Source: Gemmatimonadota bacterium (GTDB lineage Bacteria > Gemmatimonadota > Gemmatimonadetes > Palauibacterales > Palauibacteraceae). From it: a stretch of DNA of 64,000 nt. Location of the stretch: positions 1,056,001 to 1,120,000 of the forward strand of contig OY762926.1 of assembly GCA_963666735.1 (NCBI GenBank), in the 5' to 3' direction. Each line of letters opens with the position of its first letter. The first letter of the stretch is position 1. Below, one piece after another: positions 30,001 through 42,000 of the stretch. Made by a program: the position numbers.

Positions 30001-33000
30001 GGGCGGCTGATGAGGGGGCTGGAGATCGAGGGCGCGACCAGGCGGCGCTTCAAGACGGCGACGACGAAGAGGGATACCGAGGCCCGCCCCGCGCCGGACC
30101 TGGTGGACCGTGACTTCTCGGCCTCGGGGCCCGACGAGCTGTGGGTGGCCGACATCACCTACGTCCCCACGTGGGCTGGCTGGCTGTATCTGGCCGTCGT
30201 GCTCGACGTCTGGAGCCGCCGCGTCGTCGGCTGGGCCATGGCGACGCACATGCGGACCGAGCTCGTCGAGACCGCGCTGGCGATGGCTCTCGCAAGGCGT
30301 CGTCCCGAGGGTCGTGTCGTGCATCATTCCGACAGGGGCTCGCAGTACACCTCGCTCGCCTTCGGGGAGCGCTGCCGCGAGTCGGGCATCGCCCAGTCCA
30401 TGGGCTCGGCGGGCGATGCGTACGACAACGCCATGTGCGAGAGCTTCTTCGCCACCCTCGAGTGCGAGCTGATCTGGAAGCGCTCGTTCCGCACGGCGGA
30501 TGAGGCGCGACGGGAGGTCTTCGGCTTCATCGAGGGCTTCTACAACACCCGGCGGCTGCACTCGGCACTCGGCTACGAGTCGCCGGCCGACTACGAGAGC
30601 AACCATGCGGCCTGAGGCGCACCCGCGGCGCGCACCGACATCCTCTCCCGAGCGCCTGAGGGAGGCTGAAAGGAGAAGAACCGGAGGCGATCAACCACAG
30701 AAACTAACCGTCCGTGAAAGCGGGACAGCTCCAAGGTGCTCCAAGTGCCGATGGAACCTCCAAGACGTGGAATGAATGACGGCAAGCACCGCCACCCGAA
30801 CATAGCGTCCGGCGCAAACGTAACAGCCGAGAAACGGAGTAGGAACGCGCTCACGGAGCGATCTCCGCAGGCGAGGCGCAGGATCCCTTCGTTCCGTAGG
30901 GAGACACCGGTCTCGTACGACGCAGCCTTATGTGCACCCCAACAACGGGCGCTGACATGACCAACTTCGGGCACCGATTTCCTGTCGGGCGAGCCGTTTG
31001 CTACTAGACCGGAAGGTCGATGCCGGTCTCGCGCAACAGCATCCGGCCAAGGTAGGAGATCTCGACTCTCGATTTGAAGCCATCCGACTTCGGGTCGAAG
31101 GGCGGGTACTCGCCCCGCTTCAAGAGATCGTTGTTGCGTCGTAGCAGACCAAGCCGCAACAGGTGCTGTATTCCAGCATCGTAGAGTTCGGCGCTTTCGA
31201 GTTGCTTTCTCGCTGATCCCAGGACCGTTGGCTCAGGTCGATCCACGGCGTCCCATGCTCCCGACCCGCTTCCGCCATAGGATTGACCGTAGGCGTTGAG
31301 CAAGAGGAATTCGTCGTCATCGATTTCGCCGAACAGCACGAGAAGACGCTTTCGTCTGATGGTGTCCGCATGGTGGGTGGCCAAGCCTCGAAAAACGAGT
31401 TCCGTGATCCGCGAAAGTCGCTCGGATGTCACGGCCCGCGCCGCCAGATATCCGCCCGACTCGACCAGATCGATGGCTTCGGGATCGCTCAAGGTGCTGT
31501 TCACCCTCTCATGTTCCAGAGTCGTGAGCCTTTCTTCAAGCTGTCGCAAGTACGCCACGATGCGTTCTTGACGCAGCCTCGGAATGGTCGCCGTGACCAC
31601 TTCGGCGAGCGGGCCACCCACCATTGGAGCAAAGCTGCCCGCAACTCTCACAACCTGTGCAACACGGTCCCGCCAATCGGAATCGAGTTGATCAGACATG
31701 TCCGCCGCTTGCTTTATCTTCGTTCTCGGGTTGGATGGAGTAGGCGTCCAACAGTGAACTGAACACCGCGTTGCCGGACAAAGGTAACCATTCGCTCGCG
31801 GGGATTGCGAGACCGTGCTCTATGTCGGCCTCCTGGCGAATGAGTCGACCCGACGTTTGCAGCGTCCCGCGCCCGACTCCTCGCACGCCCGGCCATCACC
31901 TGTCCTTGACGACTACGCCGCCCACCCGGCGCTTAGCGCCTCCGCCTGTTCGAGTACCGTCTTCGTCGCCTTCTCCTGCTTGTCGGGCGGATAGCCGTGC
32001 TTTCGCAAGATCCGTTTGACGAGCCGCCGGAGGTTGGCGCGCACGTTCTCGCGTAGTGTCCAGTCGATCTTCACGTTGTTCTGGACGGTCTCGACCAACT
32101 CGCGGGCGATGTCTCGCAGCATCTCGTCGCCGAGCACCTGCACGGCGCTGTCGTTCGTCTCCAGCGCATCGTAGAAGGCCAGTTCGTCCTCGGTGAGTCC
32201 CAGCGCCTCCCCTCGGGCGTTCGCTTCGCGCATCTCGCGGGCGAGCTGAATCAGTTCCTCGATGACCTGCGCGGCCTCGACGGCCCGGTTCGCGTAGCGG
32301 CGGACGGTCTGATCGAGCATCTCGGCGAAGGATCGCGCTTGGACCACGTTCCGTCGCCTGCGGACCGCCAGTTCCCCCTTGAGTAGCTTCCGCAGCAGTT
32401 CGACCGCGAGGTTCCGCCGCTTCATGCCCCGCACTTCGGACAGGAAATCCTCGGACAGGATCGAGACGTCGGGCTTCCCAAGACCGGCCGCGGCGAAGAT
32501 GTCGACCACGTCTTCGGAGGCAACGGCCCGGGAGACGATCTGGCGCACGGCCAAGTCAAGCTCTTCGTCAGCGCGCGCCTCCCCGGCTGCGCGTTTGGCC
32601 AGCACCGATCGGACGGTTTGGAAGAACGCCACGTCATCCCGGATCCGTAGCGCTTCCCCGTGAGGGACGGCGAGCGCGAACGCCTGGGAGAGTTCGCGCA
32701 CGGCCAACAGACAGCGTTCCTTTCCGTTCTCCTGCGCGAGGAGGTGTTCCTGGGCCGCAGGCAGCAGGCTCGTGCGTTCGGCGGGCGTGCCGTCGATCCA
32801 TCCCGAATAGTCGAAGCCGTGGAACAAGCCTCGGCACACCTCGTACTTCTCCAGCATCACGGCGACCGCCTCGGACTGGTCCAGCGTGGTCCTGCCGGTG
32901 CCGCCGCTCTCGGTGTAGGTCGCGAGGGCGCGTTTCAGTTCGTGCGCGAGCCCCAGGTAGTCGACGACAAGGCCGCCCGGCTTGTCCCGGAAGACCCGGT

Positions 33001-39000: not shown

Positions 39001-42000
39001 CGGATGAACTCGACCGACTGCACGAACATGCCCGAGGAGCCGCAGCAGGGATCGTAGACCCGCCCCCGGTAGGGCTCCAGCATCTCCACAAGCAGCCTGA
39101 CAACGCAGCGGGGGGTGTAGAACTCGCCGCCCCTTTTCCCCTCGGCGCTCGCGAACTGCGAGAGGAAGTACTCGTACACGCGCCCGAGCACGTCCTTGGA
39201 GCGGGCCTCGGCGTCCCCGACACGGACGTTACCCACCATGTCGATCAACTGGCCCAGGCGCTGCTTGTCCAGCGCGGGCCGCCCGTAGTCCTTGGGCAGC
39301 ACCTCCTTCAGCGCCGGGTTGTCGCGCTCGATCGCGGCCATGGCCCGGTCCACGGTCTGGCCGATGGTCGGCTGTCGCGCTTCGGCCCTCAGGCGCGCCC
39401 ACCGCGCCTCCGGCGGCACCCAGAAGATGTTCTCCGCGATGTACTCGTCCCGGTCCTCGGCGGCCTCTTGTCCCCACTCGGCGAGCACCGCCGCGCGGCG
39501 CTCCTCGAAGGCGTCGGAGATGTACTTGAGGAAAACGAGCCCGAGCACGACATGCTTGTACTCGGCCGCGTCCATCGCGCCGCGGAGTGCGTCGGCCATT
39601 GCCCACAACTCGGCCTCGTAGCCGGTCGTGGCACCGCTGTCGGATTGCCCGCTTGTCAACTCCTTCGCCGTCATCGATCTCCATCGCTTTGGAGGAACTC
39701 CGCGAACCGGAGCCGCAAGATAGAATAAGGTAGGTGTCCCGCCGCCGTATACGTCATCGCCCGTTGCCTGGACTTAGACTCCCTCCCACGCCTCCGCATC
39801 ACGCCTCGGCAGCAGCTCCCTCTGGGCCCGGTCTCGCTCCGGCACGTCGTGGCAACGGCGGCAGCGCGCCTCGTACGATTCGGCGCCCCCCACCTGGATC
39901 GTCGGTCCCTCCGCGGGCGCGGGCTCGCCGTCGATGAGGCGCTGGTTCCTCGTCGCCGGATCGGCGCATACGACACAGATTGCGTGCAGCTTGTCTATGC
40001 GCTCGGCGCGCGCCAGGAGCGGCCCCATGGGACCGAAGGGCTCGCCGCGGAAATCCATGTCCGTGCCGGCCACGATGACGCGCATCCCGGCATCCGCCAA
40101 TGCATCGGCCACCTCGCAGATGCCGTCATCCAGAAACTGGGCCTCGTCGATCGCGACGACCTGCGTCGACGGGCGGACCTTCCCGGCCACCTGAACGGAT
40201 GTGGACACGGGCTCCGCATCGAGTTGCCGGCCGTCGTGGGTGGAGATCCGGAACTGTCCGCCGTAGCGGTCGTCGAGGTGCGACTTGAAGAGCTGGACCC
40301 GCCGGCGGGCGATGAGCGCGCGCCGCACGCGCCGGATCAGCTCCTCGGACTTCCCGCTGAACATCACGCCGGCGACCACCTCGATCCATCCGTGTCTCGC
40401 CCGGTGCGGCATCGATCAAATCCCCTGGACGACTAGTAGGTGCCGTCGAGGAAGGCGTCGCGGAGGCGGTCGCGCCGGGCGGTGGCCACGCATTCGGCGA
40501 GGTCGCTCAGATACTCGCCGAGCACCGGCGTGTGCACGGAGGTGATGGGTTGGTGGATGGCGGGCGGCACCCGGTGCTGCCCCATCATCCAGCCCCGCTC
40601 GTTCATGAGCCTTGCGACCGCGAAGATGTTGAACGGCTCGCCGGGACCGACATCGTAGCGGAAGAGATTCGTGTCCCCTTCGGGTTCGAACACGTAGAGG
40701 CCGTCGATCGCCCTCACACCCTCGATCGCCGCACGGGTCGTCTCCATGATCCCGCGCACGATCTTCCGGTACCCCTCCCGGCCGAGGTGCCGGAGCATGG
40801 TCCACGCGCAGGCCACGGCGCCGCCCGGACGCGATCCCTGGGCGGTGGCGGAGGCGTAGGTGCCGCCGGCGAGATCGCGGACGACATACTTCGCGTACTC
40901 GAGATCGTTGCCATCGGCGAAGAGCACGAGCGAGGCGCTCTTCTGCGCGAAACCGAACTTGTGGAGGTCGGCCGACAGACTGGACACGCCCGGCACGGAG
41001 AGGTCGAAGTCGGGAACCGGATAGCCGAGTTCCCGCGCAAAGGGTGAGATGAAGCCGCCGTAGCAGGCATCCGAGTGCAGGCGGACCCCCGTCTCGAGGG
41101 CAAGCTCACCGAGGTCCCGCATCGGATCCATGAGCCCGTAGTAGATGGTGGGGGCCCCGGCGTAGATGAAGATGGAAGCCTCGTCGATGGCTTCGCGGAT
41201 CGCGTCCACATCCGCACGATAATCCGGACGGCAATCCACGTACTTCATGTCGAGGTCGAGGATCTGGGCCGCCTTGTCCACGGAAGGGTGACGGCTATAG
41301 GCGGCGACGATATTGAGCCGGCGCAGGTCGGGGCGCGCCTCCCGCTTCATGTCGCGCGCGACCTTCACGGCCTGGAAGATGCTCTCGGTGCCCCCGGAGG
41401 TGAACTGTCCGCCGGCGCCCCCGGGCGCGTTGAAGAGGTCGAGGCCCATCTGGACCACTTCTTCCTCCATGGCCCCGACGCTGGGGAAGGAGCCCTGACC
41501 CGAAAGGGCGTTCTCCACCGAGTAGATGGCGTGGGACGCGTCCTGCACCCGCTTCAGCTCTTCGTCCACGTAGTAGACGAGGTACGGGACGCGGCCGTTC
41601 CGCCAGTCGTAGTCGACCGCCTTCCGGCCGAGCAGTTCGCGCTTGAGCGTCTCCCAGTCGGTTCCCTGCTCGGGGAGTCGCTTACGGGCCCGGACTTCGG
41701 GACTCAGGGTGCTCGTTGCCTGTGCCACTTCGATGCCCTCCGTCGAACGGTGGTGACCGACCGTGGCCGACCGCTGCCGGCCGCTGCCGACCCTTGAAAT
41801 CCAACCTTGTGCGAGGGGATTGGCGGGGCAACGCACAGGGCGCGGACCGACCCGGGGCCCGGAGCGGGGGCTTGTCTGCGGAAGCGAGGTCCAATCAGAT
41901 ACCGGGTCCGCGAACCGCCGAGACCGGACCCGAGACCGCCCCCGCACCCGAGACCCGAGAAGCGAATGGCCTGGCTGCAGACACACTGGATCGCGGTGGC

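Follow-up and report, generated by a model that had tools for sequence, protein, structure and literature searches.

Organisation of the locus

On the minus strand of the window, a stretch of 64,000 nucleotides (64 kb) from a Gemmatimonadota bacterium, five genes with open frames follow one another in the order hsdM-hepT-mnt::hsdS-rhuM/fic-hsdR, at the place that the genome-wide survey's note had given for them. The features are as follows.

38112..39674, minus strand: hsdM, type I N6-adenine methyltransferase subunit, 520 aa (Pfam N6_Mtase 3e-106 and HsdM_N; PADLOC MTase_I)
37697..38107, minus strand: hepT, HI0074-family HEPN RNase toxin, 136 aa from the likely start (PF08780 2e-32, TIGR01987)
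37793..37816, minus strand: RX4HXY motif of HepT (R98, H103, Y105), from aligned HepT
36051..37700, minus strand: mnt::hsdS fusion gene, 549 aa (single open frame; model; bridged in other runs)
37389..37700, minus strand: MNT antitoxin domain, residues 1-104 (PF01909/PF18765; 1no5 E 6e-23)
37347..37388, minus strand: MNT-TRD1 linker, of varying length and sequence (pLDDT <50 at residues 108-114)
36902..37346, minus strand: TRD1, approximate limits; final part of the variable hepT-mnt-TRD1 cassette
36656..36901, minus strand: central conserved region of HsdS (82-88% DNA identity in 12/12 loci compared)
36161..36655, minus strand: TRD2, approximate limits (blastp against TRD1)
35050..36054, minus strand: RhuM-Fic cargo gene, PADLOC candidate PDC-S23 (PF13310 and PF02661; PDC-S23 2e-114)
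31913..35053, minus strand: hsdR, type I restriction endonuclease/motor, 1046 aa (TIGR00348, 577 bits; PADLOC REase_I)

The genes are tightly packed, with ATGA overlaps at the hepT/mnt and rhuM/hsdR junctions, a GTGA overlap at the hsdS/rhuM junction and a 4-nt gap between hsdM and hepT when hepT is taken to begin at 38107, its likely start (38137 begins the longest frame). What defines a type I R-M system is present and intact, namely hsdM, hsdR and an hsdS that has both its TRDs and its conserved helical regions; the catalytic NPPF of HsdM (residues 291-294) is invariant among 38 aligned HsdM. The slot between hsdS and hsdR is variable and holds a RhuM-Fic gene in few related loci, so this gene lies outside the conserved unit. 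No tRNA was found in the 64-kb window, nor were flanking repeats that would mark an island, and a promoter scan, uninformative here, returned 0 sigma-70 sites. No RNA data set was listed as a holder of the locus.

The fused specificity subunit and its toxin

The MNT had been described as the N-terminal domain of HsdS, and this holds: NTP_transf_2/Polbeta is followed by Methylase_S in the single 549-aa frame. Its GSX10DXD motif (residues 35-49) is intact, with a third Asp at 80, and the domain superposes on 1no5 with a TM of 0.94 over the target, while its NCBIfam MntA score of 35 bits lies under the cut-off of 60. The full-length fusion model (pLDDT 85) matches both HI0073 and HsdS structures, and TRD1 and TRD2 are 45% identical (blastp, E 2e-37). 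An assembly artefact can be rejected, since contigs of two other runs span the MNT/TRD1 joint in frame and gapless (record 13 of run X2 covers 36834-37471 with 0 differences; record 4 of run X1, which may be the source sample, covers 37168-37546 with 3 substitutions) and the fusion recurs elsewhere. One contig of run X8 carries a 2-nt deletion in TRD1.

The neighbouring toxin was rightly placed in the HI0074 family (PF08780; NCBIfam HI0074 at 81 bits, cut-off 55.8). Its model (pLDDT 96) has a TM of 0.88 to HI0074 (1jog) and of 0.82 to 8xdj, and R98, H103, Y105 and E42 are invariant among 36 aligned HepT, Y105 being the predicted AMP acceptor. PADLOC gave no match for HepT. Class I HepT/MntA pairs are defined in PMC7641770 by a PF01934 or PF08780 toxin with RX4HXY and an adjacent PF01909 MNT with GSX10DXD, and by these sequence features the pair is a Class I (HI0074/HI0073-type) HepT/MntA, a type VII TA. 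Three stand-alone hepT-mnt pairs occur elsewhere in the same genome, so such a pair needs no R-M.

Comparison of DNA places the HepT/MntA pair in an exchangeable stretch that runs from the hsdM 3' end to the HsdS central conserved region. Likeness to relatives with other cassettes stops at the former and returns near 36901, and strains in runs X2 and X6 have 36893-37434 replaced. Within this stretch the catalytic motifs of MNT and HepT are, as judged from substitution patterns and alignments, under purifying selection: dN/dS is 0.03-0.23 for the fused MNT and 0.08-0.22 for orthologous hepT, RX4HXY is intact in 75/75 fused loci with a near full-length HepT, and GSX10DXD is kept in 120/120 of the best matches (of 1080). 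HepT adjoins the fusion in 73/74 fused loci with enough upstream DNA.

Recurrence and repeated origin of the fusion

The architecture was said to recur, and it does: of 1627 candidates 303-966 aa long, 1080 are matches, MNT and HsdS families occur together in 118 of the 120 best, and the fusion is spread over at least 9 phyla. Longer fusions (>966 aa) gave 1 match among 134 candidates, which is weak evidence, and 50,697 phage records gave 0 MNT matches. The PADLOC profile PDLC03138 'Specificity_I' itself starts with an MNT region. A cultured, non-pathogenic carrier is Zymomonas mobilis ATCC 10988, on plasmid pZMOB01; the hsdSp deletion in Z. mobilis ZM4 (Lal 2021, PMC8432527) was considered as a ready-made test and set aside as another system, its gene order differing and its plasmid being absent from the MNT matches.

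New here are Gemmatimonadota loci sampled by their HsdM, which carry four fused MNT subfamilies on one R-M backbone. An MNT precedes hsdS in 29 of 50 such loci, the other 21 being without one, and all 29 are fused in frame. That the majority of HsdS relatives lack the fusion is therefore no counter-argument, because every MNT found in the hsdM-hsdS slot of this HsdM lineage in Gemmatimonadota is fused. The four subfamilies are 24-41% identical (their toxins 26-39%), and all are fused beside an HsdM 75-94% identical to that of the window. One ancient fusion is rejected, as a single clade of fused MNT fails the AU test (p-AU 9e-5) and at least 5 changes fall on starred branches of a tree that has only 104 columns and in which gains and losses are not distinguishable; the phylogeny points to a fusion that arose repeatedly, in at least four MNT subfamilies. 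Toxins only 29% identical have been swapped under one MNT type.

Among 80 GTDB loci, 47 are fused and 2 are frameshifted fusions, with 0 plainly unfused MNT next to hsdM/hsdS, and among 80 metagenome loci 33 are fused and 9 unfused. Overlapping yet unfused mnt-hsdS forms are found on Acetobacter plasmids and in 3/8 cases in Gammaproteobacteria. MNT is also fused to YhcG (L113, L114 and L116, one event) and in some loci to an older MNT, so its partner may be any gene that comes next. The linkers, compared in 80 fused loci, are anywhere between a few and some 40 residues long; the former hsdS start codon persists in some and has decayed in others (none is evident in the window), and the ATG retained in about 20/80 could yield free HsdS.

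Decay of one partner bears on the role of the other. The catalytic Asp of MNT is lost in 3/10 loci with a broken toxin against 0/91 with an intact one, counts corrected by hand where the automatic rule for an intact HepT had misassigned L005, L032, L123 and L124, and which leave out two duplicates (L215, L210) and L087 (hepT deleted, MNT motif intact, contig ends); uncorrected, they are 3/14 and 0/87 (Fisher p 0.002). The three loci (L091, L177, L233) belong to three different MNT subfamilies, with hepT mostly deleted and the HsdS frame open in all. Confinement of the Asp loss to broken-toxin loci makes HepT the likely substrate of the fused MNT. Conversely hsdS is frameshifted or truncated after the MNT beside an intact hepT in L066, L075, L095 and L284, which together with the TRD1 deletion of run X8 indicates that no strict constraint keeps HsdS intact. 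The G-loop residue W40 is found in 80/80 fused type A MNT and 17/43 stand-alone ones, a count in which search patterns and ranking favour W; when independent pairs are compared the difference falls short of significance (median p 0.125), and W40 is missing from types B and D, so that its role as a fusion-specific contact is no more than a lead.

How the fusion may couple the two systems

Close solved relatives suggest that HepT would act as a dimeric RNase, silenced when MNT adds AMP to Y105 using ATP and Mg; purifying selection and the decay of MNT where hepT has been lost speak for these activities indirectly. With antitoxin and specificity subunit being one chain, the level of active antitoxin would follow HsdS synthesis, folding and turnover, and if HsdS were lost or destroyed, or if ATP ran low, fresh HepT would escape modification and growth would stop. 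Such passive coupling would stabilise the locus and give a second line behind restriction, and no specific contact of MNT with the rest of the R-M complex would be needed. That antitoxin supply is tied to HsdS through the shared chain is the best reading, held tentatively, and with it goes the equally tentative view that a working type I R-M operon here carries a working Class I HepT/MntA pair. Repeated origin, dominance of the fusion in the R-M slot, the adjacent intact hepT, low dN/dS and Asp loss along with hepT all argue for coupling. Against it, AMPylation is covalent, so that loss of MNT would free only new toxin unless AMP is removed. The unfused overlapping forms, the other fusion partners of MNT, hsdS broken beside an intact hepT, the stand-alone pairs and the linker ATGs that could yield free HsdS count against it as well.

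A widespread convergent guard, in which phage attack on the type I complex or its destruction by the cell would stop AMPylation and free the HEPN RNase, is doubtful. Unfused overlapping forms, the joining of MNT to YhcG or to another MNT, the variable linker and hsdS frameshifts that spare the MNT all go against a strict guard. Of the survey's interpretation, the TA identity, the fusion and its recurrence stand, and are strengthened by repeated origin, purifying selection and decay of MNT upon toxin loss; the fusion may still tie toxin release to failure of the restriction system.

A simpler expression-driven fusion fits several observations equally well. A toxin-first hepT-mnt cassette placed between hsdM and hsdS would break translational coupling, read-through from mnt would restore HsdS, and the TA would stay independent of R-M; both the C-terminus of this MNT type and the N-terminus of HsdS being free, the fusion would be tolerated, and it would be hard to reverse. 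Precedents can be cited for both properties, HI0073-type MNT without a C-terminal helix (PMC11586414) and an N-terminal HsdM fusion that HsdS tolerates (PMC3510504), and the linkers of many fused loci resemble a native hsdS start (L036, L057, L077, L084, L092, L104). The overlapping unfused forms, the other fusion partners, a variable and poorly modelled linker and the several broken hsdS beside intact pairs are all expected under such an origin. It accounts less well for the other cargo types in the same slot, which stay separate (0/6 fused to HsdS), for the fact that no long C-terminal partner but HsdS recurs (106 of the best 150 representatives, a count inflated by TRD diversity), for near-complete fusion in four subfamilies, which exceeds what tolerance obviously predicts, and for the W40 bias, itself short of significance on independent pairs. 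We regard this origin as possible, somewhat less so than antitoxin supply tied to HsdS.

A more elaborate alternative would make MNT activity, or its access to HepT, depend on the M2S/R2M2S state, so that an anti-restriction protein from a phage (Ocr, ArdA or Stp type) would activate HepT and thereby abort the infection. This would agree with the convergent attachment to the subunit that reads the DNA and with the type A-specific W40, and also with PrrC kept inactive by EcoprrI and the general proposal made for HEPN genes beside R-M (both in PMC3710099 and PMC12707154). One conserved interface is hard to reconcile with four MNT types at 24-41% identity, swapped toxins and such uneven linkers, and covalent silencing is slow to reverse; this sensor is improbable. 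Least probable is that the fused MNT has taken on a new task, the modification of DNA or of the R-M complex, with HepT incidental: the domain does ride on a DNA-binding subunit and keeps its motif in 7/10 loci with damaged hepT, but its Asp is lost only where hepT has gone, with HsdS still open, and 21/50 close HsdM loci do without MNT.

The in-cell trigger of HEPN-MNT toxins is an open question according to PMC7641770, and the fused architecture offers a direct test of what switches them on. A guard design, if true, would mean that HepT/MntA systems have a definite trigger in cell physiology, and that genes labelled as plain hsdS conceal a layer of defence in at least 9 phyla. The gene is a blind spot for annotation pipelines and for screens of embedded genes, which take it for an ordinary hsdS, and deleting such an hsdS for better transformation would take the antitoxin away too. 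Even as a mere expression fix, one HsdS lineage repeatedly capturing unrelated antitoxins in frame is a clear case of defence cargo wired into R-M operons.

Relation to known systems

A prior description of the MNT::HsdS fusion was not found in the literature searched, and the passages found in the BREX paper (PMC12839542), which the survey's note had left unread, do not describe it. The closest known systems are HI0074/HI0073 of H. influenzae (1jog/1no5), Lpg2920/2921 of Legionella (8xdj/8xeh; PMC11586414) and HepT/MntA of S. oneidensis (PMC7641770). The window's pair shares with HI0074/HI0073-type pairs the folds (toxin TM 0.82-0.88), RX4HXY, the Q/E pair, GSX10DXD, an overlap of the two genes with the toxin first, and a short MNT that lacks the C-terminal helix. 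In contrast to the characterised pairs, which are separate small proteins, the MNT here runs into a two-TRD HsdS inside an hsd operon.

As with PrrC/EcoprrI, a HEPN RNase is encoded within a type I R-M operon and a second-line role is plausible. PrrC is described (PMC3710099, PMC12707154) as an ABC-ATPase-HEPN protein that the R-M complex keeps inactive and Stp releases. HepT, by contrast, is a single 136-aa domain with no ABC domain; its control would fall to a modifying enzyme distinct from it, and what joins toxin-antitoxin and R-M is the antitoxin, fused covalently. FhepTA (PMC13000451) likewise has an MNT domain that works inside a fusion and whose stability depends on its partner, there its own toxin rather than HsdS; the words 'restriction' and 'HsdS' are absent from the text of that paper. 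Co-directional cargo between hsd genes is also seen in pneumococcal tvrAT (PMC6265443), Casimicrobium RM-C (PMC13515534) and the guilt-by-embedding candidates (bioRxiv 2024.01.29.577857), and the RhuM-Fic gene (PDC-S23) is such an embedded-cargo candidate. Unlike that cargo, which keeps separate frames, the MNT here is hidden inside hsdS.

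Organisation of the operon

The operon described in the genome-wide survey's note is borne out as five minus-strand genes with open frames, having a 4-nt gap between hsdM and hepT and 4-nt stop/start overlaps at three junctions.

Genes of the operon (window positions)
38112-39674, minus strand: hsdM (N6_Mtase), frame open
37697-38107, minus strand: hepT, 136-aa HEPN gene (NTase_sub_bind/HI0074), frame open
36051-37700, minus strand: mnt::hsdS, 549 aa (NTP_transf_2 and Polbeta, then Methylase_S), frame open
35050-36054, minus strand: RhuM-Fic gene (RhuM and Fic; PADLOC PDC-S23), frame open
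31913-35053, minus strand: hsdR (HsdR family), frame open

The claimed fusion of a minimal nucleotidyltransferase (MNT) antitoxin to HsdS is likewise established, the joint between MNT and the first target recognition domain (TRD1) being crossed gap-free by contigs from two other sequencing runs. Other strains (runs X2 and X6) carry a replacement TRD1 between the same MNT and the same central region, and a sponge metagenome is the best holder of the window DNA. The model of the 549-aa protein (pLDDT 85, below 50 in linker 108-114, TRD1 modelled poorly) matches HsdS structures as well as HI0073 (TM 0.94 over the target), and that of HepT matches HI0074 and Legionella HEPN toxin structures. Because TRD1 and TRD2 (36161-37346) are 45% identical and share a 56-nt repeat that is 80% identical, their sequences suggest a near-symmetric recognition site.

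Directly past hsdR lies a 231-aa gene (31004-31699, minus strand) that matches nothing in Pfam, NCBIfam or PADLOC; its Atlas feature matches (0.97-0.98) include one cluster in which 25% of members carry Abi_alpha, and it is a candidate abortive-infection gene. A small defence/mobile cluster adjoins the operon, made up of a SIR2_2-like protein gene (28226-29380, plus strand; weak PADLOC SIR2 matches), an IS3-type element beside it (29456-30615) and, at 25994-27160 on the minus strand, a reverse transcriptase gene that resembles the RT of a group II intron and has an aberrant end.

The HepT-MNT pair and what the MNT acts on

HepT keeps R98, H103, Y105 and E42, all invariant across 36 aligned relatives, and the window's MNT retains GSX10DXD and the third Asp, the HepT and MNT motifs by which PMC7641770 defines Class I HepT/MntA. 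In the closest tested relative, as given in PMC11586414, the MNT puts 3-4 AMP on Y105 of a Mg-dependent RNase, binds weakly and has no C-terminal helix; by analogy the window's HepT would be an RNase AMPylated by its MNT. The same genome has three further, stand-alone hepT-mnt pairs (G000:C1:3224557, 443986 and 20132), none with hsd genes within the 5.5 kb taken at each, and two of these belong to an MNT subfamily fused to HsdS in relatives. No MNT was detected in its two other type I systems.

Both partners are under selection, dN/dS being 0.03-0.23 in the 13 fused-MNT pairs that gave a value and 0.08-0.22 in five orthologous hepT pairs, two non-orthologous pairs being excluded. The MNT depends on HepT: among 101 fused loci, with the counts corrected by hand, none of the 91 whose toxin is intact has lost a catalytic Asp, as against 3 of the 10 whose toxin is damaged (raw counts 0/87 and 3/14, p 0.002). 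These three loci (L091, L177 and L233) represent three subfamilies, with most of hepT gone and the HsdS frame still open, which argues that MNT catalysis is likely kept for HepT, and that HsdS is kept without it. No intact hepT lacking an MNT behind it was seen in the sets compared, of which those picked by MNT are unable to show one. In a lineage related to L233 (L228, L230 and L231) HepT lacks RX4HXY and the MNT is intact, and with the loss from L233 of most of hepT and one MNT Asp this makes a stepwise decay series.

Spread and repeated origin

That the fusion recurs, as the note held, is upheld by a search with MNT residues 1-130, which matched 1080 of 1627 candidates limited to 303-966 aa, Methylase_S being present in 118 of the 120 best; short relatives were also found (633 of 663 candidates). 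The best 150 representatives at 50% identity comprise 106 MNT plus HsdS (a share inflated by TRD diversity), 5 HEPN plus MNT and 39 MNT only, many of these cut fragments. Among the best 80 of at least 558 confirmed GTDB matches 47 are fused, from nine phyla, with hepT adjacent in all 46 having enough upstream DNA and hsdM no more than 3 kb away in 43 of 44; the remaining 33 are 2 frameshifted fusions and 31 without hsdM/hsdS alongside by distance rules. The best 80 of 531 metagenome matches divide into 33 fused, 4 cut off and 43 unfused, 9 of the last beside hsdM or hsdS, including 3 near-copies with MNT::YhcG. Zymomonas plasmid pZMOB01 carries a fusion; Acetobacter plasmids have the same gene order, but mnt overlaps a separate hsdS.

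Several proteins are tandem MNT-MNT-HsdS (L254, P0076, P0090, P0102, P0106, P0108 and P0111), with an intact first MNT and an older second one of another subfamily, its motif decayed in L254 and some others, and are a record of successive cassette replacement. In other MNT::HsdS proteins (L016:8001-10229, L069:4872-7070 and P0259) the central region contains about 200 extra residues inserted in frame, which Pfam assigns to DUF559 in P0259.

Sampling by HsdM, blind to the toxin, gave 50 close Gemmatimonadota loci (two are duplicates; one more at a contig end was left out), of which 29 have an MNT ahead of hsdS and 21 none; without exception these MNTs continue in frame into HsdS (28 by profile, one into a truncated TRD). 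A sample drawn at class level around a Pseudomonas genome, comprising 29 loci with flanks of only 1.5 kb, has an MNT in 8, of which 5, the centre included, are fused and 3 unfused.

Origin is repeated. The Gemmatimonadota MNTs form four subfamilies of 24-41% mutual identity and their toxins share 26-39%, as against 82-88% DNA identity in the HsdS central region. One MNT type is paired with two toxins only 29% alike. DNA comparison places a variable hepT-mnt-TRD1 cassette between conserved hsdM, central region and hsdR. One Rhodothermales genome (G443:C1, L283-L288) contains this R-M lineage six times over, with MNTs of three types and with in-frame stops in several copies. A tree built on 104 columns from 47 MNTs chosen by hand, which has two long branches and gives no direction of change, needs 10 changes, at least 5 on starred branches. 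A single fused clade was rejected on it (p-AU 9e-5).

Mechanism

HsdS without HsdM is poorly stable. Our tentative preference, held at somewhat short of even chances, is that the fusion passively couples antitoxin supply to HsdS: supply would track the synthesis, folding and turnover of HsdS, and HepT would therefore back up and stabilise the R-M locus. It is rather less probable, though a serious contender, that the fusion merely fixes expression, which accounts well for the linkers and the exceptions and less well for the separateness of other cargo in the slot, fused to hsdS in none of six hand-picked loci with hsdS visible (22 inspected; RhuM, YhcG, DUF1016-N, DUF4258/MqsA-like, DUF4926 and Bro-N). 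The linkers between MNT and TRD1 vary in length from a few residues to about 40 and many still resemble a native hsdS start, with ATG in about 20 of 80 and decayed in others; none is evident in the window's linker. Some mundane cause of the fusion is likely.

A direct sensor resembling PrrC seems improbable, there being no conserved interface. All 80 fused type A MNTs keep the G-loop W40, as do 17 of 43 stand-alone MNTs and 2 of 9 in unfused R-M loci, but this contrast comes from a search that favoured W, and p is about 0.125 on independent pairs. Unfused mnt-hsdS forms occur, and some MNTs are instead fused to YhcG or to a second, older MNT that has often decayed. Several loci (L066, L075, L095 and L284) combine an intact hepT-mnt pair with a broken hsdS downstream of it, and one contig of another run has a frameshift in TRD1. 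The unfused forms, alternative fusions, variable linkers and broken hsdS genes count against a strict guard.

Relation to known systems

In line with the note, no description of an MNT-HsdS fusion was found in the literature searched, which lacked most subscription papers and included PMC2701414, PMC13000451, PMC12707154, PMC6265443, PMC13515534, PMC13645617, PMC8432527 and PMC3510504. The BREX paper that the note had singled out (PMC12839542) has, in its accessible text, only HEPN-MNT fusions near BREX, and the main text of the guilt-by-embedding preprint has no 'MNT', 'nucleotidyl' or 'HsdS'. In public annotation the fusion genes appear simply as 'restriction endonuclease subunit S', and the MNT region forms part of one PADLOC HsdS profile. 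PrrC-like roles have been proposed for HEPN genes adjoining R-M in PMC3710099, whose available text, including sections 10 and 14, has no MNT-TRD fusion and whose Figure 5 legend has 'RM_TRD'. That the fusion is convergent comes as a surprise, and it opens the HepT/MntA trigger to testing, a guard role being hypothetical. MNT::HsdS in an hsd operon is a real variant, widespread and apparently not described before, which unites two known systems.
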